A DNA stretch of 64,000 nt from Thermoleophilia bacterium (GTDB lineage Bacteria; Actinomycetota; Thermoleophilia; RBG-16-64-13), in contig JAOAGT010000002.1 in NCBI GenBank assembly GCA_026415615.1, positions 448,545 through 512,544 of the forward strand, in the 5' to 3' direction. Position numbers and translations under genes: made by a program. This document shows, one piece after another, positions 40,144 to 61,534 of the stretch (positions are counted from its first letter, which is position 1; each line of letters begins with the position of its first letter). Below the pieces are notes generated by a model, which did no database searches, had not been told where the DNA came from, and saw nothing but the letters and a program-made list of their open reading frames with translations.

Positions 40144-40554
40144 ATGCCGGTTGATGTAATTACCGCTGACACCCTCAACAAAGAGACCATTAAAGAAGCA
40201 CTGGACCCAGACTTTCCCAACGTCTTTGTTGACGAAGACGGGGATTTGGGGGTGAGGGACCTTTGCATCTGCTACCTGCTTCCGAACGTGGAGCAGAAGA
40301 GGCTGAGACTGCTCACTCTTTGGCATTTTAGGAAAGAGGTAGGGGAGCTCGAGAAGTATCTTTGCGCAAACCGCATAAATGTAGACTATGCCATCGTGCG
40401 GGCGGCTGTGGTGGGGAATAACCTTGCCATGACATACGATGTTTCTTTGGAGGGAGACGGAATATCTCGTCGGTCTCTGGTTCTTTTGATAAAGCGTTTC
40501 TGCTCTGCAGCCCTGGCTTCTGCCATGGAGTATGGGCAAGGTCTGCTTTCCTGA
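40144..40554 (+). CDS. hypothetical protein, possibly a YbjN-like (T3SS-chaperone-like fold) domain
   Basis: 136 aa with AAAGGAAGG RBS. The family assignment is by weak pattern only. Confidence 0.35.
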   Translation: MPVDVITADTLNKETIKEALDPDFPNVFVDEDGDLGVRDLCICYLLPNVEQKRLRLLTLWHFRKEVGELEKYLCANRINVDYAIVRAAVVGNNLAMTYDVSLEGDGISRRSLVLLIKRFCSAALASAMEYGQGLLS

Positions 40555-40650
40555 GATAGACAGAGGGAAAGAGCTCATCTGGCCGGGTATAAGAGCCCGA
40601 GGGAGGTTTGAAAAGAAAGGGCGCTGCGTAGCCAAGAGAGCGGCGCCGGC

Positions 40651-40689
40651 AAAGAGGAGCGGCCCGCCGATGGCGGGCCGCTCCTCTTT
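40651..40689. terminator. bidirectional terminator hairpin between convergent genes
   Basis: AAAGAGGAGCGGCCCGCC-GAT-GGCGGGCCGCTCCTCTTT. A-tract on one side, T-tract on the other. Confidence 0.7.
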
Positions 40690-40735
40690 GGTCTTAAGCC
40701 TTTTCCCGAGCCTCGGGACCGAAGGCTCCAGAGTT

Positions 40736-41587: not shown

Positions 41588-41588
41588 C

Positions 41589-44093
41589 TTAGGCCTCCCA
41601 TCTGGTTATCTCGATCAAGCACGAGTTGGGTGCCATGCCCGGTGCATTCTTAGAGAGCAGTCTCGCCGGCGTGAGCAGGTTGACGCATCCGCCTCTGTCA
41701 ATGGCGCCAGGCTTACCGGGCTCCAGCGGGTCGTACTTGGCCGATCCTTCATATGAGTGAACAACGCCAGGCCGAACTCTCTCGGTAACTTCGGCGGCGC
41801 ACAGCACCGCAGCGCGGTCGTTAAACAGCTTCACGATGTCACCGTTCTTGATGCCTCTGGCCTCAGCGTCCCGCGGATGGATGCGCACGATCCAGTAGTC
41901 GTAGCCGTTCTTGCGCATCCGGTGGATGGGGATCTCTGACAGCCACGGCACATGGGTGTCGTGGTGAGTATGGAAGCTAAACCGCGGATGCGGGGATATG
42001 AGCTGCAACGGGTACTTCTTGGCTAGCTCAGAGGTATGCCCCTCCCAGCTTGGGATGTACTTGGGCATTGGCGCCCGCTCAGTGTCATCCGGGGTATGCG
42101 CCAGCAAGCTTTGCGACACGAACTCGATCTTACCGCTGTAGGTGCCAAGCTCGTGCGCCTTCTCGGTGCCGCGCTTGGGATTGGCAAAGTCAGGCGTGTC
42201 GCAAGGTCTGCCCTCGTAGAACCACCGCAGGGCTGGAGTGGGCTTGTAGTTCTCGATCTGCGGGACCACAAAGTAGCCCTTGCGCTTGAACTCCTCGAAG
42301 GATATGTACTTGGGCAGATCCGAGGCGTAGAACATCTTCTCGATCCACTCCTCGATGGTCTTGCCTTCGGTGTAATCCTCGAGGAAGCCAAGGCGTTCAG
42401 CAAGTCCGCAGAAGATGTCCCAGTCAGAACGTGACTCACCAAGCGGCTCGATGCACTTCTGCTGGTAAATAATGACGCGGTGGTTGCAGCTACCAGAAGC
42501 GTGGAGGGAGTATCCGCCCGAGCTTGCCCACTCGCTAATGTCGTTGCGCTCCAAGTTGGTGCACGCCGGCAGAATGACGTCAGCAAAGCGAGTCTCCGTG
42601 GACCACCAGCAGTCCTGGTTGACCACAAACTCCAACTTCGGGCTCTGATACATCCGGACCCAGCGGTTGGTCTCGGTCATAGTGGCGATGAATGCGCCCC
42701 CATACCGATAGAACATCTTCACCTCAGAGTGTCCCGGCAGCGGGTACACAAATTTGGTGAACTGCTGTTCGAGCGATCCGCCGCAGAAGCCCTCGCCCAT
42801 CCATTCGATGTGCCCATCAAGGATTGCTTCCGGCACAAGCAAGCGGTACACGCGCTGCTTAACCGGGTTAATCGCCTTCTTCTCAGCGATGAGGTTAAAC
42901 CCGCCGCTGGCGTATCCCGGGAAGTCAAGCTCGTAGTTGTACGGCGGCCCGTTAGTGGTGCCCCATATGCTGACTCCGGGCTTGCCCAAGCCTTGCATAG
43001 CTTGCAGGAAGACCAGCATCCGGTCGTGCTCGGTAGCGTAGGCTTGACGGCAGTGACCACCCTCGCCGCCTTTGGTGCCGCCTGCCAGGCAAGTGCGGTT
43101 GGCGGCCCACTCGCGAGCCAACGCAACGATGGTGCGGGCCTCGACTCCGGTGATCTCAGCTGCCCATCTGGGGTCCTTAGGTACGCCGTCTTCTTCGCCG
43201 AGCACATACTTCTTGAACTCATCAAAGCCAATAGTGCGATTGGCGATGTAGTCCTTGTCGTAAGTGCCCTCGGTAAGCCAGACATAGGCGATGCCCAGAG
43301 CCAACGCTCCCGTGGTGCCGGGCCGGTAAGCGATCCACTTATCTCCTACCGCAGCGCCGGTGTAGTTGTAGAACGGGTCGATGATAATCTGCCGAATGCC
43401 CTTTTCTTTGAACCAATAACGCCAGAGTGCGGACTCATTACCCCCGTAGATGCCGTGGGTGGAGTCGGCGTCGTTTCCCCAGTGGATAATGAGCGTGGTA
43501 TGCCTCAGTGTTTCCTCGAGCATGTCGTAATGCTCGGGGTTGCCGAGGCGCCAGTAGAAGCCCCAGGCGTGTGTGGCTCCCCAGTGCCAGCCTTCCCAGC
43601 TGTCTGGGTTGTCCAGGATGTCGGTAAAGCCGAGCATGTTGAAGAAGCGAGCCCACGCCCCGGTGCGATAGCCCAGGTTACCCCAGTTGTGATGCGAGGA
43701 AGCGCGGGACATGATGGCTTCGGGACCATAGGTCTCCCGAATCCGCTTCATCTCATTCGCAACTAGGTCCAGCGCCTCGTCCCAGCTGATCCTCACATAT
43801 CCGGACTTGCCCCGGTTTTGGGGATTGCGCTCACCGTTTGGATCGAAGTCAACCCGCTTCATGGGGTAGAGGATCCGGTCCTCAGAGTAGACGCGGGCTT
43901 TTTCCGTCAAGGTGAAAGGCGCAACACAGGCTTTACGTGGAGGCGTGTACTTCTTGCCTTCAACATCGATTACCCAAGACGGGGCGTCCGTCTCGTCAAA
44001 GACGAGCGGACGCACCCGTACTATCTTTCCATCCTTGACATGGACTCGGATTGGGCCGCCGGCAGTGCAGTTAATAAATGTCTGCTCCGACAT
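41589..44093 (-). CDS. molybdopterin (bis-PGD) oxidoreductase large subunit, pyrogallol-hydroxytransferase (AthL)-like; no N-terminal Fe-S motif, no Tat signal
   Basis: 834 aa. The N-terminus GGPIRVHVKDGKIVRVRPL...PSW...YTPPRK...YPMKRVDFDPNGERNPQNRG...SHHNWGN...DSWEGWHWG follows the transhydroxylase-family pattern. The Cys cluster of other DMSO-reductase-family enzymes is absent. AGGAGGG RBS. Confidence 0.7.
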   Translation of the reverse strand: MSEQTFINCTAGGPIRVHVKDGKIVRVRPLVFDETDAPSWVIDVEGKKYTPPRKACVAPFTLTEKARVYSEDRILYPMKRVDFDPNGERNPQNRGKSGYVRISWDEALDLVANEMKRIRETYGPEAIMSRASSHHNWGNLGYRTGAWARFFNMLGFTDILDNPDSWEGWHWGATHAWGFYWRLGNPEHYDMLEETLRHTTLIIHWGNDADSTHGIYGGNESALWRYWFKEKGIRQIIIDPFYNYTGAAVGDKWIAYRPGTTGALALGIAYVWLTEGTYDKDYIANRTIGFDEFKKYVLGEEDGVPKDPRWAAEITGVEARTIVALAREWAANRTCLAGGTKGGEGGHCRQAYATEHDRMLVFLQAMQGLGKPGVSIWGTTNGPPYNYELDFPGYASGGFNLIAEKKAINPVKQRVYRLLVPEAILDGHIEWMGEGFCGGSLEQQFTKFVYPLPGHSEVKMFYRYGGAFIATMTETNRWVRMYQSPKLEFVVNQDCWWSTETRFADVILPACTNLERNDISEWASSGGYSLHASGSCNHRVIIYQQKCIEPLGESRSDWDIFCGLAERLGFLEDYTEGKTIEEWIEKMFYASDLPKYISFEEFKRKGYFVVPQIENYKPTPALRWFYEGRPCDTPDFANPKRGTEKAHELGTYSGKIEFVSQSLLAHTPDDTERAPMPKYIPSWEGHTSELAKKYPLQLISPHPRFSFHTHHDTHVPWLSEIPIHRMRKNGYDYWIVRIHPRDAEARGIKNGDIVKLFNDRAAVLCAAEVTERVRPGVVHSYEGSAKYDPLEPGKPGAIDRGGCVNLLTPARLLSKNAPGMAPNSCLIEITRWEA

Positions 44094-44107
44094 GCGCTAT
44101 AGCCCTC

Positions 44108-45331
44108 CTAGTCGACTGGTGCTGCGTTCAGCAAGGCCATGTCCGTCGTTGCAAATCCATGCAGGAAGCTGTAGACGTCCCTTAGATGCTTGCTGAAGGG
44201 CACGTCGTCATCAGTTGTACCGTATCCGCCGAAGATGCCGCACGCGTGGTTGACAAACTCCACGCCGATTTGGTCGACAAAGGCCTTGACCAGCATTCCG
44301 ATCTTCGGATTGTAGTCGTGCTTTGTCTGGTACGACCAGGCACCCTTCCAGAGCAGCGCCCGAGCCGCCTCAAGCTTGGCCTGCATGTCGGCGATCTTCA
44401 TGGCGACATGGTGATGCTGAATGATGGGCTTTCCGCCCTGCACCCGCTTCTTAGCGTAGTCCAGAGCCTCTTCATAAATTGCCCTCACCGTGCCCAGGTT
44501 GGCAGCAGCGCCCAGGAGCCCAAACGGCGGTGGAACTCCTTGCGGGGTCTTGGACCAGTCTTTCTGCGGGCCTCCCCACTCGCCTTCGGTTCCCCAAGCC
44601 TCGCCTTCCTTACCTACGAGGTAGCGGGCCGGAATCCGAGCGTTCTCGAAAACTAGCTCAGCGTTGGCAAGCAGCCTCCTACCCAACTTGTTGTGGAACC
44701 GGCCGATCCGCAACCCTGGGGTGTCGTGCGGCACGAGGAAGCAGCTCAGGCTGGTGGAGATGGGGCCCTTCCTGTCGGTACGGGCATACAGGAAATAAAG
44801 CTTGGCGATGCCGCCGCAGGAAATGTAATGCTTAGTGCCGTTAATAATGTATTCGTCGCCTACTCTTTCGGCATAGGTTTGAATTGAGGCTCCCGGCTCG
44901 TCGTAGAGGAAGTGAGAGTCGGTTCCCGCCTCCGGCTCGGACCGCGCCAGACCCAGGAGGAAGGTGTCGTCTTCCAGGAACTTTGGCAACCACTCGTCGC
45001 GCTGTTCAGGTGTGAGCTCCCCGACAAGTCGTGGAGACTCGGTGTAGCAGCCGCGGATGATGGTGGCAAAGCCCTGGTCTGCCACTCCCAGTTCCTCGAG
45101 GACGATGCAGAGAGTAAGGTAATCCGCGCCTCCGCCTCCCCACTTCTCAGGGATGGCAAGAGTACGAAGACCAAGCTGCGAAGCCTTCTTGATCAGGTCC
45201 CACGGGACACAGTCAATCGGGTTCGGCCGCCGGTCGTACTCCATGGCCACGGGCTTCACCTCGTTCTCGGCGAAATCCCGCACCATGTCGCGGATCATCT
45301 GTTGTTCTTCGGTTAGATAAAAATCAACCAT
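44108..45331 (-). CDS. acyl-CoA dehydrogenase family protein
   Basis: ACAD N-terminal, middle and C-terminal domains are present (LTEEQQMIRDMVRDFAENEV..., YIINGTKHYIS, FGGYG). GGAAGGAGGA RBS. Confidence 0.85.
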   Translation of the reverse strand: MVDFYLTEEQQMIRDMVRDFAENEVKPVAMEYDRRPNPIDCVPWDLIKKASQLGLRTLAIPEKWGGGGADYLTLCIVLEELGVADQGFATIIRGCYTESPRLVGELTPEQRDEWLPKFLEDDTFLLGLARSEPEAGTDSHFLYDEPGASIQTYAERVGDEYIINGTKHYISCGGIAKLYFLYARTDRKGPISTSLSCFLVPHDTPGLRIGRFHNKLGRRLLANAELVFENARIPARYLVGKEGEAWGTEGEWGGPQKDWSKTPQGVPPPFGLLGAAANLGTVRAIYEEALDYAKKRVQGGKPIIQHHHVAMKIADMQAKLEAARALLWKGAWSYQTKHDYNPKIGMLVKAFVDQIGVEFVNHACGIFGGYGTTDDDVPFSKHLRDVYSFLHGFATTDMALLNAAPVD

Positions 45332-45605: not shown

Positions 45606-46490
45606 CTAGCCCCGCTGGACAATGGCGCTCTTTATGTGGAGCATTAGGGCGCGGGCCGCTGCCGGGAGGGGCCGGTCGCGGGGATAGATAAGAGTAAGGT
45701 CTCGGTAGAGAGGACGTTCAAACGGGACCACTACCAGATCTTCAGCATTATCTGCGGTGGCAAGCATTTTTGGCATGGGAGCAACCCCAAAACCTTTGCT
45801 TACCAAAGCCTTGATCAGCTCTGGGTAATTGGCACGATAGGAGAAGCGAGGCTCCACGCCTGCTCGCCGCAGGGCGTCGGCTGCAATGTTCCCCGCATTC
45901 ATGGTGGTACGCGGGAGAAGTATCGATTCTCCAGCAAGCATCTTGAGCGGAACGCGGGGGAGGCGAGCCAACCGGTGGTTTCGCGGCACCACAAGCACTA
46001 TTTCTTCTGTAAGAAGATGCTGCGCAGCAGTGCGTGACGAACCCCAGGGAGTTATTACCGCGCAGTCGAGTTCCCCACGAATGACTGCCTCTTCGAGCTG
46101 AGCGTCATCCTTTTCCACGAGGTCTACACTGACATGGGGATAGGCTTCCAAGAACGAAACTAGAATAGGAGTAAGAAGCAGTGCCATGACGTTGCCGACG
46201 GCGCCAAAACGCACCGAACTGGATGTGGCTCCGGCCTGTTCGCGTATGAGAGCGATGGCCTCCTCGGTTCGGGCGACGATTGCTTGGGCCAAGGGCAATA
46301 AGAGCTGGCCGGCTGCGGTGCATTCCACGTGCCGTCCGTATCGCTCAAAGAGCTGAGCTCCCAGCTCACGCTCTAGTCGCGCTATCTGCCTGCTCAGGGT
46401 AGGCTGCGTGGAGTGCATAGCGCGAGCCGCCCGGCTGAAACTTCGGGCTTCGGCTACGGCAAGAAAGGATTTGAACAGCTCCAGGTCCAT
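45606..46490 (-). CDS. LysR family transcriptional regulator
   Basis: The N-terminal HTH (LELFKSFLAVAEARSFSRAARAMHSTQPTLSRQIARLERELG) plus the LysR substrate-binding domain. It is divergent from etfB. Confidence 0.9.
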   Translation of the reverse strand: MDLELFKSFLAVAEARSFSRAARAMHSTQPTLSRQIARLERELGAQLFERYGRHVECTAAGQLLLPLAQAIVARTEEAIALIREQAGATSSSVRFGAVGNVMALLLTPILVSFLEAYPHVSVDLVEKDDAQLEEAVIRGELDCAVITPWGSSRTAAQHLLTEEIVLVVPRNHRLARLPRVPLKMLAGESILLPRTTMNAGNIAADALRRAGVEPRFSYRANYPELIKALVSKGFGVAPMPKMLATADNAEDLVVVPFERPLYRDLTLIYPRDRPLPAAARALMLHIKSAIVQRG

Positions 46491-46640: not shown

Positions 46641-47417
46641 ATGAACATTGTAGTTTGCGTGAAACAAGTTATCGACACCGAAGCCGAAAACAGGCTCAAC
46701 CCGGAGACGTGGCGCGTAGACCGCAGCGTCAATTGCATTCTCAACCCCTATGACGAGTATGCAGTGGAAGAAGCGCTAAGGCTTCAAGAGGCGCACGGCG
46801 GCCAGGTTACTGTGGTTTGCATGGGACCAGAGAAGGCTGCTGAGGCCGTGCGGAAGGCTCTGGCCATGGGAGCAGACAGCGCCGTGCTGGTGAGCGACGA
46901 AGCTTTGGCCGGTTCCGATGTGCAGGGTACCGCGTATGCGCTGGCGGAAGCTCTCAAGGGGCTAACCTTTGATCTCCTGATTTTCGGCAACCGTTCCACC
47001 GACGGCGAAACAGGGTGCGTACCTGCAGCTGTGGCCGAGCGACTGGGCATTCCGTTCTTGTCTTGCTTGTCCAAGGTCGAGGTCAACGGGAACACCCTAT
47101 CTGTCCATCGGGAAACAGACCAAGGCCATGTTGCGTATGAATGCCCGCTGCCGGCTGCCATTTCGGTGGTCAAGGGAATCAATGAGCCTCGGTATCCAAG
47201 CATCAAGGGCATCATGACCGCAAAGAAAAAGCCGCTCGACGTCAAGAATGTGGCGGCTCTTGGTCTGGACGCTGGCCAAGTAGGGGCTGCCGGGGCAAAG
47301 ACCAAGGTCCTGACAGCAACCGTTCCAGAGCCACGCAAGGCTGGGGTCAAGATTGAGGACGACGGTTCAGGCGGCAAGCGCATAGCTGAGTTCTTGGCTG
47401 GCGCCAAGCTCATCTAG
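46641..47417 (+). CDS. etfB: electron transfer flavoprotein beta subunit
   Basis: MNIVVCVKQVIDTE...NPYDEYAVEEALRL is the EtfB/FixA pattern. Confidence 0.9.
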   Translation: MNIVVCVKQVIDTEAENRLNPETWRVDRSVNCILNPYDEYAVEEALRLQEAHGGQVTVVCMGPEKAAEAVRKALAMGADSAVLVSDEALAGSDVQGTAYALAEALKGLTFDLLIFGNRSTDGETGCVPAAVAERLGIPFLSCLSKVEVNGNTLSVHRETDQGHVAYECPLPAAISVVKGINEPRYPSIKGIMTAKKKPLDVKNVAALGLDAGQVGAAGAKTKVLTATVPEPRKAGVKIEDDGSGGKRIAEFLAGAKLI

Positions 47418-47434: not shown

Positions 47435-48424
47435 GTGAGCAACAAGACTGGGATCCTGGTTGTAGCTGAGCCCGGCCAAGGCCGGCTGGCTAACGTTACT
47501 CTCGAAAGCATTACTCAAGCTCGGGTGCTTGCGGCGTCCCTGGGCGGGCCCGTGAGTGTGGCCGTGATCTCCTCTGAAGCGGCTCCTCTGGTGGCTCAGG
47601 CTGGACGGTTTGGGGCAGACAAAGTCTACGTGGTAGAGAGCCCCGAACTTAGCGTATTCCGGTCCGGCACGTTTGCTGATGCTGCCACGGCGGCGATCAA
47701 AGCGGCAGACCCGGCGGTGGTGCTCTTTTCTAATTCGAACGATGGTCGGGATGTGGCAGCAGCGTGTGCTGCTCGTCTGGGCGTAGGACTCTTGGTGGAC
47801 GTCACCGATTTGCAGGTGAAAGACGGGACGCTTCGAGCTTATCATCCGTGCTTTGGTGGGCGGATGATTGCTGAAAAAGAGGCCACTTCCGTTCCCGTCA
47901 TGGTCACGGTCCGGCCAAGCGCGTTTGCGCGCGAAGAGGCTCCTAAGGAACCCGAGGTTGTCCCGCTTGCTGTTGATTTTGGGCCGACAAGCCTCGCTGC
48001 AAAGATAGTGGATGTGGTCACCGAGAGTCTCGGGGAAATTGCCCTCGAGGAGGCTTCGGTCATCGTAGCCGGTGGACGCGGAGTGGGAAGCGCAGAGGGA
48101 TTTGGCGTCTTGCGCGAATTGGCCAAAGAGCTGGGGGCTGCGGTGGCAGCGAGCCGAGCTGTGGTGGATCTCGGTTGGATGCCTCACCAGAGCCAGGTTG
48201 GCCAGACGGGCAAGACCGTTTCGCCGCAGCTTTATATTGCCTGCGGGATTTCCGGGTCCATCCAGCACCGAGCTGGTATGCAGACTTCCAAATGCATCGT
48301 GGCCATCAACAAAGACCCCGAGGCGCCCATCTTTTCCATTGCCGACTTTGGCGTGGTGGGAGATCTCTTTGCTGTCGTGCCGGCGCTGACCGAGGAAATT
48401 CGTCGTCGCAAAGCGGGAGCCTAA
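47435..48424 (+). CDS. etfA: electron transfer flavoprotein alpha subunit
   Basis: The C-terminal FAD-binding region (...[19 protein letters not shown]...) is the EtfA/FixB pattern. Confidence 0.9.
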
Positions 48425-48488: not shown

Positions 48489-50180
48489 ATGACTCAAGAA
48501 CGAGAGGTAATGGAGGTCGATGTCCTCTATGTGGGCGGAGGCGTTGCCTCTCTAAGTAGCGCTCTTCACCTGTCAAATCTTATTAATGCTCACAACGCCA
48601 AGGGCGAGGGCAAGAAGCTTGATGAGGTTATGGTAGCGGTCCTCGAGAAGGGGGCCTACTTTGGAGCTCACGGCATTTCCGGAGCAGTGATGGCTCCTGG
48701 CCCGCTTAAAGAGCTGATACCCGACTACTTAGACAAAGGCGCCCCCATTGAGGGAGAGGTAACAAAAGAATCCATCTACCTTCTGACCGAGCGGGGCAAG
48801 ATTAAGTCTCCCATTACTCCTCCTCCACTTAATAACCACGGCAACGTCGTCATATCCATGGCGAAGATGAATCAATGGCTGGCTGGCCTAGTGGAGGAGA
48901 ACGGCGTTTACATGTTCCCCAGCTTTGCTGGAGTTGAGCTTCTCTACGACGGGGACAGGGTCATTGGAGTTCGCACTGGAGACAAGGGAGTTGGCCCCGA
49001 CGGGCAAAAGAAGCCCAACTATGAACCGGGAGCCGACGTCATCGCCCGGGTGGTCGTGTTAGGCGAGGGTTCGCGTGGAAGCTTGACCAAAGAGGTCATA
49101 AAGCGTTTCGGGCTTGATCGCGGCAAGAACCCGCCAGGATTTGAGGTTGGTGTAAAAGAGGTTTGGGAGATACCTGCTGGTCGTATCGAGCCTGGCGAAG
49201 TAATCCACACCATGGGGTATCCGCTCAAGAGCGATACTTTTGGCGGGGGCTTCATCTACGGTATGAAAGACAATCTGGTGTGCCTCGGCCATCTCACCAG
49301 TCTGGATTATTCAGATCCTTTCATTGATCCCCACCGCGAGTTCCAGCGTTTTAAGCTTCATCCTTTGGTGAGAGGACTACTGGAGGGCGGCAAGCTTGTC
49401 CAGTACGGGGCCAAGACTGCGCCAGTGGGTGGATATTACTCGATTCCCAAGCTCACCTTCCCTGGCGGTTTGCTAATTGGTGACGGCGCCAACCTCTTCA
49501 ACGCCCAGAAAATCAAAGGCGTGGATATAGCTATGCGGTCAGGAATGCTGGCTGCAGAGGTTATTTTCGCTGCACTGGTTAACGACGATTTTTCTGAGTC
49601 CCGCCTTGCGGCGTACGAGCAGGCCATGGCTGAGACCAAGGAAATGAAGGACCTGTACAAGGTGCGGAATTTCCATCAAGCCATGACGCGCGGGCTGTAT
49701 TTGGGCCTGCTTACCGCGGCTGCTCAGTATGTTCTGGGAGGGCGAGTACTTAAGAACAGGTTGCCTGCTACTCCGGATCATACCCACCTGAAAACTGTCG
49801 CGGAGAAGTACGGCACAACTACCCCGAGCCCCGAGGCGGTGCGCGACTTCAAGTATGACGGCAAGCTCACTTTTGACAAAGAGACAGACGTTTACTACTC
49901 GGGAACGGTTCACGAAGAAGCTCAGCCCTCTCATCTCAAGATAAAGAGCTTGGACATTTGCTACGGGGAGTGCGCTACACGTTATCAATATCCTTGCGTC
50001 AGGTTCTGTCCAGCCGGGGTCTATGAGATTGAGGTGGACGAGTCTACCGGGCAGAAGTCGCTCAAGATTAACTTCTCAAACTGCGTTCATTGCAAGACGT
50101 GTGATGTGAAGGATCCTTTCGAGAACATCCAATGGGTGCCCCCGGAAGGAGGAGGAGGTCCCAAGTACACAGTCGTGTAG
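48489..50180 (+). CDS. ETF:quinone oxidoreductase (ETF-QO / FixC-FixX fusion type)
   Basis: 563 aa. The N-terminal FAD motif VDVLYVGGGVASL and a C-terminal 4Fe-4S ferredoxin-like domain (CYGEC...CVRFCPAGVY...CVHCKTCD). Confidence 0.85.
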   Translation: MTQEREVMEVDVLYVGGGVASLSSALHLSNLINAHNAKGEGKKLDEVMVAVLEKGAYFGAHGISGAVMAPGPLKELIPDYLDKGAPIEGEVTKESIYLLTERGKIKSPITPPPLNNHGNVVISMAKMNQWLAGLVEENGVYMFPSFAGVELLYDGDRVIGVRTGDKGVGPDGQKKPNYEPGADVIARVVVLGEGSRGSLTKEVIKRFGLDRGKNPPGFEVGVKEVWEIPAGRIEPGEVIHTMGYPLKSDTFGGGFIYGMKDNLVCLGHLTSLDYSDPFIDPHREFQRFKLHPLVRGLLEGGKLVQYGAKTAPVGGYYSIPKLTFPGGLLIGDGANLFNAQKIKGVDIAMRSGMLAAEVIFAALVNDDFSESRLAAYEQAMAETKEMKDLYKVRNFHQAMTRGLYLGLLTAAAQYVLGGRVLKNRLPATPDHTHLKTVAEKYGTTTPSPEAVRDFKYDGKLTFDKETDVYYSGTVHEEAQPSHLKIKSLDICYGECATRYQYPCVRFCPAGVYEIEVDESTGQKSLKINFSNCVHCKTCDVKDPFENIQWVPPEGGGGPKYTVV

Positions 50181-50716: not shown

Positions 50717-50754
50717 GCAAGAGGAGGCCCCGTCCATGCGGGGCCTCCTCTTGC
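50717..50754 (+). terminator. terminator hairpin after the etf-etfQO-ahpD-like operon
   Basis: GCAAGAGGAGGCCCCG-TCCAT-GCGGGGCCTCCTCTTGC, then TTAAC. Confidence 0.6.
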
Positions 50755-50836: not shown

Positions 50837-51580
50837 ATGGTTGTGCGGGAAAAGCAAGTAAAGAGCATTTTGTCTCCCTCCAAGGTCTACGACTATGCGC
50901 TTAACCCGTACGTAGGATGTGAGCACGCATGCGCATACTGCTATGCCCGCTTCATGCGCCGGTTTACTGGTCACCGGGAGCCGTGGGGCGAGTTTGTGGA
51001 CGTGAAAACCAATGCGCCAGATTTGCTTCGCCGGGAAATTATGCGAAAGCCTGTGGGTACAGTGTGGGTGAGCGGGGTTTGTGATCCCTATCAGCCGCTT
51101 GAGCGCCAATACAGGCTCACGCGCCAGTGCCTTGAAATCTTGGTGGAGAACCAGTGGCCCATCTGTGTTCAGACTCGGTCTCCTCTCGTGTTGCGAGATC
51201 TGGACGTTTTGCGTCTGGGATCACGGTTGGAGGTCGGTTTTACGATCACCACCGGTGACGACGAAATCAGGCGCCTGTTTGAGCCTCGTGCATCGAGCGT
51301 GCAAGAGCGGCTGGAAGGTCTTGCAGTGCTACACGAGGCGGGAATAAAGACCTTCGCCATGATTGCTCCTATCTTGCCCGGCGCCGAGAAACTGCCCAAG
51401 TTACTCGCTGGCAAGGTAGATCACATTCTTGTGGACCGGCTAAACTACGACTACGGCAATTGGGTCTACAAACAGCACGAACTTGAGTACGCTCGCACAG
51501 ACGCTTACTTCGAGTCCGTTGCCAGAGAACTCGCGGCTGATTGCGCACGACTAGGCATTCCGTGCCGAGTGGTGTTCTAG
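50837..51580 (+). CDS. radical SAM protein (COG1533 / SPL-like family)
   Basis: YALNPYVGCEHACAYCYA is the CxxxCxxC radical-SAM cluster motif. Confidence 0.7.
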   Translation: MVVREKQVKSILSPSKVYDYALNPYVGCEHACAYCYARFMRRFTGHREPWGEFVDVKTNAPDLLRREIMRKPVGTVWVSGVCDPYQPLERQYRLTRQCLEILVENQWPICVQTRSPLVLRDLDVLRLGSRLEVGFTITTGDDEIRRLFEPRASSVQERLEGLAVLHEAGIKTFAMIAPILPGAEKLPKLLAGKVDHILVDRLNYDYGNWVYKQHELEYARTDAYFESVARELAADCARLGIPCRVVF

Positions 51581-51625
51581 TCGAACTCTAGCGGCTGTTA
51601 TGATGCCGGAGATGTCGAACAAACT

Positions 51626-54199
51626 GTGATGGAGAGTGGGGGTATGATCGCGCGCACTACGGCCTGGTCAGCGGGCCCCGGCTGCCACGGAGGGTGCGGG
51701 GTTCTAGCTTATGTTGAGGACGGCAGACTGGTAAAGGTGGAAGGGGATCCGGATCATCCCATCAACCGGGGACGGCTCTGCGCCCGGTGTCTGGCGATGC
51801 CCCAGTACATCTATCACCCGGATCGCCTACGCAGTCCCAGGATTAGAGTTGGCGAGCGCGGCGAGGGAAAGTGGAAAGACATCTCTTGGGAGGAGGCCTT
51901 CGACTATATAGAGGAAAGAATGAAGGCCATCCGAGACAAGCATGGGGCCGAAAGCGTGCTGTTTGCTATGGGCACCGGTCGTGATGTCGGGGCCTGGATC
52001 TGTTTGCTTGCTTACAACTATGGGAGTCCCAACGTAGTTTTTGCCCTATCCGGAATCGGATGCTACACGCCTCGTATTGTGGCCTCCGAGACAGTGTTGG
52101 GTGACTACTGCGTGTTTGACGGTGGGCAGTGGCTTCCGCAGGGACACGATGATCCGGCGTACCGAGTGCCGGAGTGCATCGTTATCTGGGGTTACAACAT
52201 TAACGCCTCTTGCCCAGACAATATCTTTGGTCACTGGGTGACCGATCTCATGAAAAAGGGCTCCAAGCTCATCACGATCGATCCCCGTCTTACCTTTTTT
52301 GCTTCGCGAGCCGACAAGTGGCTTCAGCTTAGGCCTGGTACAGATGGTGCCCTGGCTATGGGCTTTCTCAATGTGATCATCGAAGAAGGACTCTACGACA
52401 AGGAGTTTGTAGAGAAGTGGACAAATGCTCCCCATCTGATCCGGACCGACACAGGTACGCTCTTGCGCGCTTCGCACCTGGTTGCTGATGGCTCGCCTGA
52501 CGACTTTGTGGTCTGGGATCTTGCCGGTGGACGTCCTGCTATATGGGATTCGGCCAACGTGGAGTTTCGCAGTCCTGGGGTGACTCCTGCGTTGGAAGGA
52601 AGCTTTACCGTGCGTCTGGCTGACGGTTCCTCGGTTACCACTGAGACGGTGTGGTCGCTGTTCTGCAGGGAAGTCGCCAAGTATCCTGTGGAGGAGGTTG
52701 CGAGAATCACCTGGCTCAAGCCGGACGATATCAGAGAAGCTGCCCGTCTATATGCCACGAGCAAACCCGCCACCATCCAGTGGGGCGTGGCAATTGATAT
52801 GACTCCGGCCATAACTCCCACCTCAATGGCTATTGCCGACCTTTGGTGCATTACCGGCAACCTTGACGTGCCGGGGGGAAATGTGATTGCGCGCCCGGCT
52901 TTTGGGGCAGTGCCGTACGCTCTACCTGGGCAAAGGGGGCCTATCCGGCTGCCCGATGAAAGCATCGACGAAAAGCGCATAGGTCGAGACCGTTACGGAG
53001 CTCTAAGAGAGTTCATTTGGCGGGCCCACACCGATCTTGCGTTGGAACAGATCTTTACCGGAGATCCGTACCCGATTAAGGGAATGTGGATTCAGTGCTG
53101 CAACTTGGTAGGAGGCATAGGGTACGACCCGGAGCGATGGGTGAGGGCTTTGAAGAAGCTCGACTTTGTCGCTGTGGTGGACACTTTCATGACGCCTACT
53201 GCGGAGCTTGCGGACATCGTGCTACCCGCGGCTACTTTCTTAGAAAAGAACGGAGTGCGCAGCTGGTGGACTCCGCTTGAGGCCATTGTCAAGGTTGTTG
53301 AAGTGGAAGGGTGCAAACCGGACAACGAAATCAACTTTGAGCTTGCCAGGCGCTTTAATCCAAACATGAAGTGGAAGTCCTGCGATGAGCTTCTGGACGA
53401 GATCGTAAGTCCAGCGGGCGTGACCTTCAAAGAGCTTGCCGAGAAGGGCTGGATTCTTCCTCCTGATGGTCATCCGAGCGCTCCCTACCGCCGACACGAG
53501 CGCGGTTTACTTCGGCCCGACGGAAAGCCTGGCTTTAAAACTCCATCGGGCAAGGTAGAGCTCTACTCAGTCTTGCGGGAAAAATGGGGGTTTGAGCCCT
53601 TGCCACACCACGAGGAGCCGCCTTTTAGTCCGGTGGCGAGCCCAGACCTCTTCCAGCGATATCCGCTTATTCTCACCACTGGGAGGCGCTCTCCCGTGTA
53701 CTTTAACTCCGAGCATCGCAATATCCCTTGGCTTCGTGAGGCCGACCCCGACCCAGTGGTTGAACTTCATCCTGAGACTGCCGCTGCCCTAGGCATCGGC
53801 GATGGCGAGTGGGTCTGGATAGAGAACATGTTTGGGCGGTGTCGACTGAAAGCCAAGCTCACGCGTGTAGTGCCGCGCTGGCTAGCCTCTGCTACGCATG
53901 GATGGTGGTACCCAGAGAGAGAAGGTGCCGAGCCGTCGCTGCGGGGAGTTTGGGACTCAAGCACAAATCAACTGCTTCCTATGGGCTATCAGGGCAAAGA
54001 CGGATTGGGGACCCATGCCAAGTGCACCATCTGCCGGGTCTATCGGGCCCACACCGCTCCTCCCAGCGCCTATGCCATGCCAGAGGGCGGTGTCATTGGT
54101 GGAGTACTAAAGCCGAGATCGGTGCCTCATGGTGCGGCTCCAGGCCACGCCTCGGCGCCGGCCGGATCGGCGGGGCGGGAAGACAGAGAGGAGAAGTAA
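51626..54199 (+). CDS. molybdopterin/tungstopterin (bis-PGD) oxidoreductase catalytic subunit, cytoplasmic with no Tat signal; PsrA/PhsA-like N-terminus
   Basis: The N-terminal Fe-S motif CHGGC...C..C with KVEGDPDHPINRGRLCARC resembles the polysulfide/thiosulfate-reductase-type N-terminus. 857 aa. The start is ATG at 51626, or ATG at 51644 after GGAGAGTGGGGG. Confidence 0.8.
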   Translation: MMESGGMIARTTAWSAGPGCHGGCGVLAYVEDGRLVKVEGDPDHPINRGRLCARCLAMPQYIYHPDRLRSPRIRVGERGEGKWKDISWEEAFDYIEERMKAIRDKHGAESVLFAMGTGRDVGAWICLLAYNYGSPNVVFALSGIGCYTPRIVASETVLGDYCVFDGGQWLPQGHDDPAYRVPECIVIWGYNINASCPDNIFGHWVTDLMKKGSKLITIDPRLTFFASRADKWLQLRPGTDGALAMGFLNVIIEEGLYDKEFVEKWTNAPHLIRTDTGTLLRASHLVADGSPDDFVVWDLAGGRPAIWDSANVEFRSPGVTPALEGSFTVRLADGSSVTTETVWSLFCREVAKYPVEEVARITWLKPDDIREAARLYATSKPATIQWGVAIDMTPAITPTSMAIADLWCITGNLDVPGGNVIARPAFGAVPYALPGQRGPIRLPDESIDEKRIGRDRYGALREFIWRAHTDLALEQIFTGDPYPIKGMWIQCCNLVGGIGYDPERWVRALKKLDFVAVVDTFMTPTAELADIVLPAATFLEKNGVRSWWTPLEAIVKVVEVEGCKPDNEINFELARRFNPNMKWKSCDELLDEIVSPAGVTFKELAEKGWILPPDGHPSAPYRRHERGLLRPDGKPGFKTPSGKVELYSVLREKWGFEPLPHHEEPPFSPVASPDLFQRYPLILTTGRRSPVYFNSEHRNIPWLREADPDPVVELHPETAAALGIGDGEWVWIENMFGRCRLKAKLTRVVPRWLASATHGWWYPEREGAEPSLRGVWDSSTNQLLPMGYQGKDGLGTHAKCTICRVYRAHTAPPSAYAMPEGGVIGGVLKPRSVPHGAAPGHASAPAGSAGREDREEK

Positions 54200-54200
54200 G

Positions 54201-54617
54201 GTGTCGGATCACAGAGTGAATTCAGACGCCAGCGTCAGCCAGGGTGCACCCACGAGTGGTGAAACAAAGCCGCGTCGTGACAAGCAACCCGAGTATGGCC
54301 TTCTCATTGACTATGAATTCTGCACCGGGTGTTTTGCTTGTCAGGTGGCCTGTCAGCAAGAGCACCGCTGGCCGTCGGGATTGGGAGGCATTCGGGTGCA
54401 GGAGATAGTCCAAAATTTGCCGAATGATCGGGCCTACCTTACATATCTCCCCTTTCCGACCGAGCTCTGTGTCCTGTGTGCTGCACGCACTCGTAAAGGG
54501 CTTCAACCCGCATGCGTCCAGCACTGCATGGCTCGCTGCATGAAATATGGGCGACTGGAGGATCTCGTCAAGGAGATGACGAAGCCGCGGATGGTGTTAT
54601 GGGCGCCTCGCGCGTGA
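54201..54617 (+). CDS. small 2x[4Fe-4S] ferredoxin-like electron-transfer subunit
   Basis: CTGCFACQVACQ and CVLCAA...CVQHCMARC. GTG start 5 nt after GAGGAGAAG. The stop of the upstream Mo enzyme overlaps the RBS. The track ORF 54129 starts inside the Mo gene. Confidence 0.65.
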   Translation: MSDHRVNSDASVSQGAPTSGETKPRRDKQPEYGLLIDYEFCTGCFACQVACQQEHRWPSGLGGIRVQEIVQNLPNDRAYLTYLPFPTELCVLCAARTRKGLQPACVQHCMARCMKYGRLEDLVKEMTKPRMVLWAPRA

Positions 54618-54662: not shown

Positions 54663-55247
54663 TTAGTTGTGGCAGTTGTGGCGAGTTGGGGCATCCCGCC
54701 AGGCAACTCTCTCGGACGAGATTGGTCGGGCTGGCACTCCACCCACAAAGCTTCCCGGTGCCACGTCCGCGTTAACCAAGCTACAAGCGGAGATCACAGC
54801 ACGATCTCCGATCTTTACTCCTGGCAGAATGGTCACGTTGGCGCCTATCATCACCCGCTGACCAATCGTGACCGGTCCAACTCGCAGCTCGTCAACTAGG
54901 AACTCGTGAGCGAGGATTACCGTGTTGTAGCCAATAATAGAGTTATCGCCAACGGTTATAAGTTGGGGGAAGAATATGTCCAAGACGGATCCGAGGCCAA
55001 ACGATACTTGATTCCCGATACGTGCTCCTAGTGCCCGGTAGAGGAAGTTTTTCCAGGACAGGAAAGGCAAGTACCGGCAAAGGTATATCACGACAAAATT
55101 AAGAGCTACCCTACGCAGCGGTACCCACTTTCGCCAGACCCACAGGGAATTAGAGTCTGGCGGCGCCGGCATAACTGACAGTCTAGCAGTTCGTGATGTC
55201 TGTCCGTCCATCCAAGAGTGCTCGCTTATTGCCGTGCATCCTACCAA
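54663..55247 (-). CDS. hexapeptide-repeat (LbH) acetyltransferase, WcaF/maltose-O-acetyltransferase-like
   Basis: Hexapeptide repeats IGNQVSFGLGSV...IGANVTILPGVKIGDRAVISACSLV. Confidence 0.7.
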   Translation of the reverse strand: MVGCTAISEHSWMDGQTSRTARLSVMPAPPDSNSLWVWRKWVPLRRVALNFVVIYLCRYLPFLSWKNFLYRALGARIGNQVSFGLGSVLDIFFPQLITVGDNSIIGYNTVILAHEFLVDELRVGPVTIGQRVMIGANVTILPGVKIGDRAVISACSLVNADVAPGSFVGGVPARPISSERVAWRDAPTRHNCHN

Positions 55248-55357
55248 GTATTGTAAAGCGGGCGCGGCAGTGGTCTACTCTACTGCGTAGGAGTAGTTGT
55301 AAAGCAGCAGTAGTTCGTAAAGCAGCACCTAACGGGTTCTCAACTGGGTAAGCCGCA

Positions 55358-56026
55358 ATGGTATCGTTGCTCTCTTCACAGCCACACGAGTACCGGATCT
55401 TGCGGCATGCCGTGAGGGCTTGGACCTGTTTTGCTCGCTGGGCGGTCTACAGTCCCGTCGTCTGGGTCTTGGTTGCGGTTAACCTCGGTAGTGCAGTTCC
55501 GGGTTACCTTTTTTGGTATGGCGGAACGCTACAGCGTTCTCCCTGGTACCTGTGGGTTTTCGTTCCTGACAGCCCCCTGTCTGTCAGCCTTATGGGCGTG
55601 GCGCTTGTGGCCTTGCATTACCGCAAACGGTGGGAAGTACTGTATATGTTGGCCTCCGTTAGCTGTATGAAATATGGAATGTGGACTGTCTTGGTCTGGC
55701 TTACCCACTACCTCTCGGGCGGAAGTTACGACTTTACCGCTATCCTAATGAGCGCGACCCACGGCGGAATGGTGATCGAGGGCTTTATAGTTGCTGTCCT
55801 CATGCGACGCGTTCTTTTATCTCTTGTTGTCTCTGCTTGCTACCTAGTGGTCAATGACGTGGTCGACTACGTGCTCGGTCACCATCCGCGAGTTCCCAAT
55901 CCTCAAGACTTGCCGCTAATAGGCATCTTAACGGCTCTTCTGTCCGTCCTCATCATCGTCGGGTGGGTGGTTGTTCTGGTCAAACAAGGGGCACTTCATC
56001 GCCAGTCCGCGTTGATGGGCAAGTGA
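55358..56026 (+). CDS. DUF1405 family membrane protein
   Basis: A polytopic membrane protein of about 220 aa with the DUF1405 pattern (WYLWVFVPDSPL...). The family is Firmicutes-specific. Confidence 0.65.
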   Translation: MVSLLSSQPHEYRILRHAVRAWTCFARWAVYSPVVWVLVAVNLGSAVPGYLFWYGGTLQRSPWYLWVFVPDSPLSVSLMGVALVALHYRKRWEVLYMLASVSCMKYGMWTVLVWLTHYLSGGSYDFTAILMSATHGGMVIEGFIVAVLMRRVLLSLVVSACYLVVNDVVDYVLGHHPRVPNPQDLPLIGILTALLSVLIIVGWVVVLVKQGALHRQSALMGK

Positions 56027-59945: not shown

Positions 59946-60815
59946 CTACGAAGTTTTTCTCGCCGGCTGGGCTTGTTTGCGCAGGTAGATGAACCAGTAC
60001 ATGAATCCCACCAAGACGGCCCCGCCAATAATGTTGCCAATTGTTACGGGGATGAGATTGTTCACGAAGAAGTTTCCCCAGGTAAGGTCGGGATAGTCGG
60101 CAGCAGTCTTGCCGATCGCCGTCCAGAAGGACTCCGGGGCAAGTGCTTTGATCGCTAGGCCCAGAGGAATGAAGTACATGTTTGCAATGCTGTGCTCGAA
60201 GCCTGCAGCGACGAAAGCAGTTATGGGCGGAATTATGGCCAATATACGGTCAGTAGTGCTGCGGGCGCTGTAGGTAAGCCAGACTGCCAAGCAGACAAGG
60301 GCATTACACATGATGCCCAAGACAAGAGCTTGGAAGAAATCTAGACCGGACTTGGTGTTGGCTATAGCAAGTGCTGTTGCGCCCACGACTCCGGACCCAA
60401 AGCGGTACTGCCCGGTGGCTAGCATGAGGCCCACGGTAGCCAGGGAGCCCACAAAATTTCCCACCCAGACGACCAGCCAGTTCCACAGTAGTCGCCGGGT
60501 GCTTACTTTTCGCCGGGCCCAAGCCATTACGATCAAATTGTTTCCCGTAAAAAGCTCGGCTCCGCCGATCACTACCAGCATGAGCCCGAGGCTAAAAGCT
60601 AGACCGCCGAGCAGTTTCACTATCCCATATGGTAGGGCGCCAGTAAGCCCGGCGGATCCGTCAACCGAGCGGAAATCCAAAGTGCCTGAGATTACGGTGG
60701 TTGAGAAAACTGCTCCCAGAGCAATAAAGGCGCCAGCTAGCACGGAAAGAGCAAACATCCGGGGGAAATCCATGTTTGCCTTAGACACGCCTATCTGTTC
60801 GGCCTTAGTTGCCAT
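59946..60815 (-). CDS. formate/nitrite transporter (FNT) family channel
   Basis: The FNT pattern (...GAELFTGNNL..., NLIPVTIGNIIGGAVLVG). The start is uncertain: the track ORF begins at 60950 and overlaps the upstream gene, so I chose the Met at 60815. Confidence 0.75.
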   Translation of the reverse strand: MATKAEQIGVSKANMDFPRMFALSVLAGAFIALGAVFSTTVISGTLDFRSVDGSAGLTGALPYGIVKLLGGLAFSLGLMLVVIGGAELFTGNNLIVMAWARRKVSTRRLLWNWLVVWVGNFVGSLATVGLMLATGQYRFGSGVVGATALAIANTKSGLDFFQALVLGIMCNALVCLAVWLTYSARSTTDRILAIIPPITAFVAAGFEHSIANMYFIPLGLAIKALAPESFWTAIGKTAADYPDLTWGNFFVNNLIPVTIGNIIGGAVLVGFMYWFIYLRKQAQPARKTS

Positions 60816-60880
60816 CTGTGAGGGGAGAAGGGCGTCAAAGGAAACGGCACCATGGCCGGGATGATTCCCCTGTGGTCTTC

Positions 60881-61534
60881 TCATGCGCGGCTGAGCTTCT
60901 CGAGTGCTTGTTGGCACAGTCTTACTCCCTCCATTGCGTCGTTGGTCCAAAGGTCAGCGCCTATGTAGCGCGCGGTAGCTTCGTCGATAGTTCCCCCGCC
61001 TACGACTAACAGCGGCAAGTGTTCAAACTCCGAGGCGTGCTGACGGAAGAGCGCCACGGTTTCGTGCATAGAAGCAAAAGCAGCTGTGAGGAGACCGGAC
61101 ATGCCCACGATGTCGGGCTTGGACTCCCGTGCCGCTTCGAGAAACTCCTCTGGGGGTATGTTTACGCCAAGGTCACGGACAGAGAAGCCAAACATGCGAA
61201 ATGCCAAAGCTGCCATGTTCTTGCCGATATCGTGGATATCCCCAGCTACAGTACCAAGCAGCACTTTCCCCGAGGCTTCCCCAGTCCACTCGGCTTCGAG
61301 CCCTGGTCTTACCAGTTCCATAACGGTCCGGAAGATTTCGCCGGCCATTATGAGCCCGGACAAGTAGATTTCTTTTTGCTCGTACCTTTCTCCAACGCGG
61401 CGCATGCCTGCCTGCACAGCTCGCACCACCTCGACCGGGCTGGTGCCCTCTTTGAGGGCTTGTTCCACAAGGTCGAGGACTCGCTTGTCGTCTAGCTCCT
61501 CGACTGCGCCGCTTATCTGTTCCAAGACAAGCAT
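60881..61534 (-). CDS. corrinoid (cobalamin-binding) protein, MtaC/MtbC-like
   Basis: An N-terminal helical cap plus the B12-binding Rossmann domain with GDIHDIGKN (the DxHxxG motif). GGGAGGAG RBS. Confidence 0.8.
   Translation of the reverse strand: MLVLEQISGAVEELDDKRVLDLVEQALKEGTSPVEVVRAVQAGMRRVGERYEQKEIYLSGLIMAGEIFRTVMELVRPGLEAEWTGEASGKVLLGTVAGDIHDIGKNMAALAFRMFGFSVRDLGVNIPPEEFLEAARESKPDIVGMSGLLTAAFASMHETVALFRQHASEFEHLPLLVVGGGTIDEATARYIGADLWTNDAMEGVRLCQQALEKLSRA

Follow-up and report, generated by a model that had tools for sequence, protein, structure and literature searches.

A soluble molybdenum enzyme–ferredoxin module of a Thermoleophilia bacterium is probably related to Gordonibacter-type catechol dehydroxylases

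We analyzed a gene pair in a 64,000-nt stretch of a Thermoleophilia bacterium genome (contig JAOAGT010000002.1, positions 448,545–512,544 of the forward strand; hereafter the window). The pair encodes a catalytic subunit of the molybdenum/tungsten (Mo/W) bis-pyranopterin guanine dinucleotide (bis-PGD) type and a small iron–sulfur (Fe–S) protein, and a radical S-adenosylmethionine (radical-SAM) gene lies directly upstream. Our comparisons of protein sequences and gene neighborhoods suggest that the enzyme probably belongs to the Gordonibacter-type catechol dehydroxylase group, represented by Cldh and Dodh, and that the two genes form a soluble, cytoplasmic module for the reductive dehydroxylation of polyhydroxybenzenes. 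Catechol dehydroxylases constitute a clade sister to acetylene hydratase (AH) and come in two architectures. The Eggerthella type is large, exported by the twin-arginine translocation (Tat) pathway and equipped with a four-cluster subunit and a membrane anchor; the Gordonibacter type lacks a Tat signal, is smaller, has a small 4Fe-4S protein encoded next to it and is predicted to be soluble and cytoplasmic (PMC7028382, PMC11585353, PMC11887054, PMC12771579).

The catalytic subunit contains the Pfam domains Molybdop_Fe4S4, Molybdopterin and Molydop_binding, and no NCBIfam model reaches its cutoff on it. We compared it by BLASTP with reference sequences (Cldh, Dodh, Dadh and AH) taken from the eLife Figure 6 alignment. 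It scored 611 bits against Cldh (268 + 343; 50% and 41% identity) and 588 bits against Dodh (260 + 328; 50% and 38% identity), each score being a sum over two blocks, and a third sequence of that figure fell within the range of 588–649 bits shared with these two. The scores were 332 bits (30% identity) for Dadh, about 312 bits (110 + 202) for AH and 123 bits for a Psr-like reference. Among solved structures, the best match was AH (2e7z; 279.8 bits, E = 3.7e-82) and the second was Thermus PsrA (219 bits, E = 8e-64). In a neighbor-joining tree of 29 sequences with 200 bootstrap replicates, the orthogroup of the window enzyme received 100% bootstrap support and was placed inside the Cldh/Dodh-type clade, apart from AH and Dadh, in 177 of the 200 replicates; AH and a Desulfococcus homolog formed a separate clade with 100% support. 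The initial annotation, made from the DNA sequence, had called the enzyme PsrA/PhsA-like and had pointed to acetylene hydratase as a known cytoplasmic case. The former likeness did not hold up, as the PhsA model (NF012032) gave 251.9 bits, its cutoff being 694, and the Psr-like score was far below those of Cldh and Dodh, whereas a relation to acetylene hydratase was borne out, if loosely. Assignments to Psr/Phs, Ttr, Arr, Fdh, Nas and DmsA were likewise rejected, every NCBIfam model for them remaining far under its cutoff.

The N-terminal [4Fe-4S] cluster site (FS0) bears the mark of the same clade. Alignment showed that the motif WSxGPGCHGGC...CxRC is common to the whole Cldh/Dodh-type clade, including the window enzyme, and that the canonical CxxCxxxC of AH, Dadh and a Psr-like protein has become GPGCHGGC in every Cldh/Dodh-type sequence, so that Gly stands in place of the first Cys. 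Both motifs quoted in the initial annotation, CHGGC...CARC and KVEGDPDHPINRGRL, are indeed present in the catalytic subunit. Residues C14, H15, C18, C46 and C49 are invariant in the 39 orthologs in which we assessed conservation. Cys49, the second Cys of CxRC, is an extra Cys relative to the canonical FS0 motif of AH. It is also missing in a set of paralogs (loci L030, L052, L027, L033, L067, L024 and L038), which have three Cys only. The AH residues C12-D13-I14 correspond to C14-H15-G16 here, and His15 is thus aligned with the catalytic Asp13 of AH. Cys140, the predicted protein ligand of the metal, is aligned with the Cys of SLCTAPR in PsrA and with the corresponding Cys of AH, Dadh, Cldh and Dodh; it is invariant in the 39 orthologs, and SGxxCYxPR is the clade pattern around this ligand. 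Given the failure of the PhsA model, the replacement of Asp13 by His, the position in the tree and the shared FS0 motif, we infer that the enzyme is neither Psr/Phs-like nor an acetylene hydratase, but of the Cldh/Dodh type.

The gene structure argues well for a cytoplasmic location. All three open reading frames (ORFs) named in the initial annotation are present on the + strand (Table 1). That annotation gave the catalytic subunit 857 amino acids; both the starts called on near-identical contigs and the way homologs begin favor instead the ATG codon at 51644 (MIARTT..., 851 amino acids) as the most likely start. It had also described the GTG start of the ferredoxin gene as overlapping the stop codon of the catalytic gene, which needs correction: the GTG comes one base after the TAA at 54197-54199 and is preceded by AGGAG about 8 nt upstream, and gene callers assign 138 amino acids to the product. 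The reported absence of a Tat signal was confirmed, in that residues 1–60 contain no RR and neither a motif like [ST]RRxFLK nor a hydrophobic segment was seen. Reassignment of the start codon does not create a Tat motif either. A TAG codon at 51578-51580, the radical-SAM gene's own stop, lies in the frame of the catalytic gene and closes it upstream, and therefore no longer N-terminus or signal peptide is possible. The maximal Kyte–Doolittle value over 19 residues is 1.37 in the catalytic subunit, and we found no hydrophobic segment in either subunit. An anchor subunit is lacking as well, as had been noted: the window contains no NrfD/PsrC-like gene, and none recurs in 79 related loci (see below).

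The small subunit fits the description of a two-cluster mini-ferredoxin. Eight Cys residues (41/44/47/51 and 90/93/105/109), a number sufficient for two [4Fe-4S] clusters, show conservation of at least 90% across 62 homologs, forming CxxCxxCxxxC and then CxxCx11CxxxC within a core of about 110 amino acids; a ninth Cys is at position 113. Residues 30–75 align with PsrB (2vpw_B) residues 2–48, and residues 88–127 with PsrB residues 114–153. Of the four Cys groups of PsrB, the small subunit therefore keeps I and IV and has lost II and III. In FdnH/PsrB-type subunits, groups I and IV make up the ferredoxin-like domain that contacts the catalytic subunit. As judged from this alignment, the small subunit is a PsrB-type protein cut down to its docking half. 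In the mechanism that we propose, a cytoplasmic reductant would load the two clusters of the small subunit, electrons would travel via FS0 to Mo, and the reduced Mo centre would remove a ring hydroxyl of a polyhydroxylated aromatic compound as water.

Some features of the catalytic subunit are its own. An insertion of about 80 residues is specific to the orthogroup within the Cldh/Dodh-type clade; in the alignment it is missing in Cldh, Dodh, AH and all paralogs of about 50% identity. It shares KWTNAP.L...GS..F.V.D...PALEG.F...L.DG..V...VW with Dadh, and is recognizably homologous to part of the larger Eggerthella Dadh insertion. In an AlphaFold2 model built from 39 closely related sequences, which is poor overall (predicted local distance difference test (pLDDT) score 60.6, predicted template modeling score 0.51), the insertion is beta-rich with pLDDT 83–94. 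The C-terminal tail of 49 residues is probably disordered, to judge from the same model, and is lineage-specific: orthologs outside the close lineage have 806–842 amino acids, covering 94–95% of the query. With 851 amino acids, the insertion and the tail, the protein does not have the compact size of about 770–800 amino acids free of an Eggerthella-type insertion. A limited literature search found no description of the clade-wide loss of the first FS0 Cys, which leaves many paralogs with three Cys, or of the Dadh-like insertion in this orthogroup; we regard both as leads rather than established novelties.

The module is widespread. Of 8,000 candidate proteins scored, at least 5,436 were relatives of the catalytic subunit at E <= 1e-20; the top 120 share 66–99% identity with it and belong to Actinomycetota, Dehalococcoidia, Deltaproteobacteria and Aminicenantes. 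Within the orthogroup, identity stays at 64% or more from Actinomycetota to Dehalococcoidia and Desulfobacterota; Aminicenantes has members too, and a partial relative from Thermoprotei (Archaea) is 59% identical. In a species-level genome collection, 401 genome stretches encode a relative, and we kept 79 of these loci (L numbers denote these and further loci that we compared). The small ferredoxin gene adjoins the Mo gene in 72 of the 79. When we looked for other conserved neighbors of the pair, no family recurred in more than 14 of 75 loci; thiolase, short-chain dehydrogenase/reductase, 3-hydroxyacyl-CoA dehydrogenase, ABC ATPase and aldehyde:ferredoxin oxidoreductase (AOR) were the commonest. 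The thousands of relatives, together with the published soluble two-subunit type (PMC7028382, PMC11887054), contradict the initial view that cytoplasmic members of this branch are rare. Catechol dehydroxylase homologs are widespread in environmental anaerobes, one of them lying in a Thauera 3,5-dihydroxybenzoate cluster (PMC7028382). Earlier reports cover the architecture, the clade, its wide environmental spread and nearby LysR regulators, and even sediment Chloroflexi in which 'acetylene hydratase-like' genes occur together with genes for pyrogallol hydroxytransferase (PMC7028382, PMC7858054, PMC11887054, PMC3971608). The window enzyme is a further member of this known family.

What the enzyme acts on can be approached through its neighbors. 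A LysR gene between two divergent gene sets is a candidate for a substrate-responsive regulator; it is syntenic in L002 and L081, and its counterparts in L081 and L082 carry Pfam HTH_1 and LysR_substrate domains. Such a regulator accompanies the Gordonibacter-type enzyme Gs Vadh (PMC11887054) and AH-like genes in Coriobacteriales (PMC7858054). On the other side of LysR lies a divergent operon with an acyl-CoA dehydrogenase gene and the genes for both subunits of a transhydroxylase-like enzyme, AthL and BthL; the AthL-like protein matches pyrogallol–phloroglucinol transhydroxylase (4v4c_A) with 925.6 bits (E = 2e-277). The same divergent arrangement is repeated in L081, L082 and L002. The pairing of acyl-CoA dehydrogenase with a transhydroxylase is unusual, and an unassignable 212-aa ORF (40114-40752) follows the small-subunit gene.

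The link to transhydroxylase genes extends beyond this lineage. AthL homologs of at least 40% identity were present in 10 of the 59 loci with at least 8 kb of flanking sequence. In L027, L033, L042, L046 and L053, the Mo, ferredoxin (Fd), AthL and BthL genes are contiguous, with gaps of tens of bases, and these cassettes come from metagenome-assembled genomes (MAGs) of Desulfitobacteriia, Clostridiales, Pseudomonadota and Deltaproteobacteria. The operon of L027, a Desulfitobacteriia MAG (L027:3796-16213), comprises two cyclase genes, a cupin gene, a gene for a 3-hydroxyacyl-CoA dehydrogenase (3HCDH)-like protein, a short-chain dehydrogenase/reductase (SDR) gene, Mo, Fd, AthL, BthL, a BKACE gene and a thiolase gene. 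Apart from the transhydroxylase, this set corresponds to DPGC, TfD, PGR and TAL of the anaerobic phloroglucinol pathway (PMC10470551), with cyclase equivalent to DPGC, 3HCDH to TfD, SDR to PGR and BKACE to TAL; the operons of L033, L042 and L053 resemble it. Such gene orders suggest that a dehydroxylase-type enzyme takes part in trihydroxybenzene fermentation. We found no description of the tight Mo-Fd-AthL-BthL cassettes in phloroglucinol operons in a limited literature search, and treat them as a lead, not as an established novelty. The window enzyme probably acts on a compound of the tri- or tetrahydroxybenzene type or on a related plant polyphenol, because the module and the close transhydroxylase homolog have the LysR region in common, and because paralogous Mo-Fd pairs of other phyla are fused into Mo-Fd-AthL-BthL cassettes in complete phloroglucinol operons. 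One may go further and suppose that the window enzyme and the cassette-borne paralogs are a missing redox component of anaerobic trihydroxybenzene metabolism, an idea that we consider doubtful. The orthogroup could then make or consume 1,2,3,5-tetrahydroxybenzene, the co-substrate of the transhydroxylase, or alternatively could funnel other polyphenol isomers into the phloroglucinol pathway.

Several points weigh against our assignment. The label 'dehydroxylase' reaches the window protein by homology at 38–50% identity, the tree was made by a simple method, and the AlphaFold2 model is too poor for inspection of the active site. The insertion sets the protein apart from Cldh and Dodh, so that it is not a typical Gordonibacter-type enzyme. 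DPGC, TfD and TAL genes are absent from the window, orthogroup members in other phyla sit in unrelated contexts, and polyphenol genes have been seen as neighbors only in the close lineage of the window and beside the paralogs of about 50% identity. Lastly, the genes for an electron transfer flavoprotein (ETF) and ETF:quinone oxidoreductase (ETF-QO) that adjoin the unit could mean that electrons flow in the opposite direction.

This last point underlies the chief rival explanation, in which the cytoplasmic enzyme would work oxidatively, hydroxylating with water or dehydrogenating an aromatic or alicyclic substrate, and would pass electrons via the small subunit to ETF/ETF-QO and on to quinone, much as in resorcinol hydroxylase-type chemistry. 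The EtfB, EtfA and ETF-QO genes immediately precede the unit in the same orientation, a synteny shared by L002, L081 and L088; Mo-bis-PGD enzymes are reversible oxygen-atom transferases; and the neighboring AthL family includes hydroxylases (PMC10100899). We nevertheless think this explanation unlikely. The EtfB/EtfA/ETF-QO/CMD set is syntenic only in the close lineage (the three loci just named and L080), and the link is missing beside orthologs of 80% (L087) and 68–69% identity (L084, L085) and in nearly all of the 79 loci. The acyl-CoA dehydrogenase of the divergent operon would be an ordinary client of ETF/ETF-QO, and all characterized members of the clade are reductive dehydroxylases. The ETF genes are, moreover, parted from the Mo-Fd unit by a strong GC-rich hairpin, which none of 200 shuffled sequences equaled in folding stability and which persists in L081 and L002, where the alignment shows compensatory changes from G:C to A:T. 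It is probably a terminator or attenuator dividing the Etf/ETF-QO/CMD genes from the unit; having no T-tract, it was not reported by a consensus terminator scan, and consensus promoter and terminator counts were no higher than in shuffled sequence. The CMD/AhpD-like protein, whose conservation is 100% in L080 and L088 but 85% in L081, is always encoded between ETF-QO and the hairpin.

The initial annotation had placed a three-gene unit after a terminator, with the radical-SAM protein as a maturase or partner of a rare cytoplasmic Psr/Phs-like reductase. A strong conserved hairpin does precede the genes, and the radical-SAM gene, read in the same direction as the Mo gene, is separated from it by 63 bp, which makes co-transcription plausible in this lineage; the unit itself found no support. 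The gene is upstream of Mo in L080 (Mo subunit 98.6% identical) and L088-L090 (94.6%), but not in L081-L083 (86.6%) or L002 (81%), nor in any of the 79 loci. L081-L083 and L002 keep the backbone of LysR (on the − strand), EtfB, EtfA, ETF-QO, CMD-like, Mo and Fd genes, which in L081-L083 runs on downstream into FtsH/P5CR/CBS, and have non-coding sequence where the radical-SAM gene would be. Its homologs of 63–68% identity have unrelated neighbors (DUF169, SnoaL, ABC transporters) and no Mo gene; in one case PadR and FtsH genes follow about 5 kb downstream, a sign of local rearrangement and not of functional coupling. The protein is a full-length COG1533/SplB-like member, its 247 residues being the modal length of 7,186 detected relatives. 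It has no relative in the Protein Data Bank at E < 0.01, passes no curated model (far under the PA0069 and mobile-pair-B cutoffs) and contains the Radical_SAM domain alone, with no SPASM or other maturase-type auxiliary-cluster domain detected. Two distant relatives (L091:4222-5744, L092:4190-5744) have an unannotated protein of 252–257 amino acids encoded directly 5′ and DUF169 nearby. This distribution and these unrelated contexts therefore leave the partner or maturase idea unsupported, and radical-SAM genes go unmentioned for Gordonibacter-type clusters, which consist of two subunits, transporters and a regulator (PMC11887054). From its conservation, the gene appears to be an unrelated, widely conserved stand-alone gene that recently, and by chance, came to be placed upstream only in the window's immediate lineage. 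With the Psr/Phs models failing as well, the three-gene unit is largely refuted by conservation data, and we give it the least credence of all the explanations. A non-redox hydratase of the AH type, whose Fe–S partner would only keep W or Mo reduced, is hardly more probable. AH is the best match among solved structures, its Cys metal ligand is conserved as Cys140, and Fe–S proteins have been noted beside putative AH genes (PMC7858054). Against this stand the roughly twofold higher bit scores to Cldh and Dodh, the separate clade of AH, and an FS0 motif unlike that of AH. Asp13 of AH is essential for catalysis, and here it is replaced by His15 and the following Ile14 by Gly. On the strength of the Asp13 change, the FS0 motif and the tree, we ruled out annotation as acetylene hydratase. 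A cytoplasmic reductase of an inorganic or organic sulfur, selenium or arsenic compound or of an S- or N-oxide, serving detoxification or assimilation, would suit the 66–87% conservation of the orthogroup across several phyla in unrelated contexts and the partial similarity to the PhsA, DmsA and Fdh models of NCBIfam. It is improbable in turn, if somewhat less so than a hydratase, as all such models score far under their cutoffs, the nearest characterized relatives act on aromatic hydroxyl groups, and genes of polyphenol metabolism accompany the enzyme in the window lineage and in several paralogs. The function that we favor is reductive dehydroxylation of a polyhydroxybenzene.

Table 1 Features of the Mo-Fd locus and its flanks, with positions in the window
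Feature	Position	Strand	Remarks
Small Fe–S subunit (BthL-like)	40736-41587	-	Fer4_11 + CarboxypepD_reg
Pyrogallol–phloroglucinol transhydroxylase-like large subunit (AthL-like)	41589-44093	-	Pfam AhtL-like_1st
Acyl-CoA dehydrogenase	44108-45331	-	Divergent operon 40736-45331
LysR-family regulator	45606-46490	-	NCBIfam LysR matches; between two divergent gene sets
EtfB	46641-47417	+	Upstream lineage-specific gene
EtfA	47435-48424	+	Upstream lineage-specific gene
ETF:quinone oxidoreductase	48489-50180	+	Upstream lineage-specific gene
CMD/AhpD-like protein, 151 aa	50225-50680	+	Under Pfam cutoff; weak match to GSU3128 (seleno)protein family
GC-rich hairpin, 17-bp stem	50717-50754	+	3′ of CMD-like gene; -39.3 kcal/mol, z = -6.5
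Radical-SAM gene	50837-51580	+	247 aa; PF04055; CxxxCxxC = CEHACAYC
Mo catalytic subunit	51644-54199 (ATG; alternative GTG 51626)	+	851 aa (alternative 857 aa); Mo/W-bis-PGD
FS0 [4Fe-4S] region	51683-51790	+	Cys14-His15-x2-Cys18 ... Cys46-x2-Cys49
Cys140, predicted protein ligand of Mo/W	52061-52063	+	Motif SGIGCYTPR
Insertion of ~80 aa, residues ~262–343	52427-52672	+	Orthogroup-specific within Cldh/Dodh-type clade
Pro/Ala/Gly-rich C-terminal tail, residues ~803–851	54050-54196	+	pLDDT < 35
Small Fe–S subunit (ferredoxin)	54201-54617	+	138 aa; 2x[4Fe-4S]; GTG start

Other parts of the window deserve brief mention. Downstream of the ferredoxin gene, a hexapeptide acetyltransferase (54663-55247, − strand) scores 200 bits against the heptaprenylglyceryl phosphate O-acetyltransferase model (cutoff 300), and a divergent DUF1405 membrane protein (55358-56026, + strand) scores 97 bits against the LhaT lipoprotein N-acetyltransferase model (cutoff 255); both of these systems have been described in Bacillota. 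In L081, the 87% relative, a PadR gene takes the place of this pair (54663-56026). The rest of the window resembles an anaerobic catabolic region (1297-31768 and 59946-60950). It includes a thiolase (1297-2478), an AOR with AFOR_N/AFOR_C matches (most likely the 615-aa ORF 14473-16320), a DctP/Q/M TRAP transporter, two SDRs, FAD_binding_4 and CCG (Hdr-like) proteins, a TetR regulator and a formate/nitrite transporter (most likely 59946-60950). Elsewhere, paralogous Mo-Fd pairs likewise have AOR, TRAP, thiolase and SDR genes as recurrent neighbors. A DUF1846 protein and a protein with the cell-wall binding repeat CW_binding_2, a repeat more typical of Bacillota, are encoded at 36381-37895 and 35107-36336 (− strand). 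An Rfam scan of the whole window returned one tRNA only, with no molybdenum cofactor or other riboswitch near the unit.

Should the doubtful idea of a missing redox component prove right, dehydroxylation in the cytoplasm would be a general step in the breakdown and turnover of polyphenols in peat and anoxic sediments, one not assigned before, and not a specialty of the gut. Environmental members of the family are almost all unassigned, and their function bears on anaerobic polyphenol turnover and on the 'enzyme latch' question (PMC10470551). Mo-Fd modules are repeatedly wired to transhydroxylase genes and to the complete phloroglucinol pathway, more loosely so in this Thermoleophilia genome, which suggests tri- and tetrahydroxybenzenes as candidate substrates. 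The assignment also avoids a wrong annotation of the enzyme as a radical-SAM-matured cytoplasmic Psr.

Comparison with known systems places the module as follows. With PsrABC/PhsABC (2vpw) it shares an alignable N-terminal half (153 bits) and a small subunit derived from a PsrB/NrfC-type protein; Psr differs in being Tat-exported, with a four-cluster PsrB and the NrfD-type anchor PsrC, and the PhsA model score (252 against a cutoff of 694) sets the two apart. AH of Pelobacter (Syntrophotalea) acetylenicus (2e7z), the closest solved structure, is likewise a cytoplasmic enzyme that binds its metal through Cys and has a [4Fe-4S] cluster at the N-terminus. In contrast to the window enzyme, it has Asp13 where His is found here, a canonical Cys motif, a monomeric form without a ferredoxin subunit and non-redox chemistry, and it falls in a separate clade (100%). 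The Eggerthella-type enzymes Dadh, Cadh and Hcdh belong to the same wider clade, and the insertion is homologous to part of that of Dadh. Dadh differs by its Tat signal, canonical CxxCxxxC at FS0, length of about 1,000–1,200 amino acids, four-cluster subunit and anchor, as well as by its lower similarity (30% identity, 332 bits).

The 3,5-dihydroxybenzoate cluster of Thauera aromatica AR-1 offers an AH/dehydroxylase-type homolog in an operon for an anaerobic polyhydroxy-aromatic pathway (PMC7028382). It differs in being proteobacterial and part of a nitrate-respiring pathway. We take the same cluster to hold, in addition, a pyrogallol-transhydroxylase-type hydroxylase and a LysR regulator. AthL/BthL (4v4c) and the phloroglucinol pathway (PMC10470551) provide context only: the transhydroxylase belongs to another Mo-enzyme family, Ser-ligated and without FS0, and the window has a close homolog of it next door without the PGR/DPGC/TfD/TAL set. 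The closest sequences are those of the Gordonibacter type (Cldh, Dodh, Gp Hcdh, Gs Vadh and Eadh1/2), at 38–50% identity and about 590–610 bits. The window protein is longer than these (851 against about 770–800 amino acids) owing to the insertion at residues 262–343 and the tail, and it comes from an environmental Thermoleophilia MAG rather than from gut Coriobacteriia, with no adjacent major facilitator superfamily transporter or LuxR. It has in common with them the lack of a Tat signal and of an anchor, a bis-molybdopterin guanine dinucleotide subunit encoded next to a small Fe–S protein, the FS0 motif WSxGPGCHxGC...CxRC, a Cys metal ligand and, as in Gs Vadh, a LysR gene nearby.

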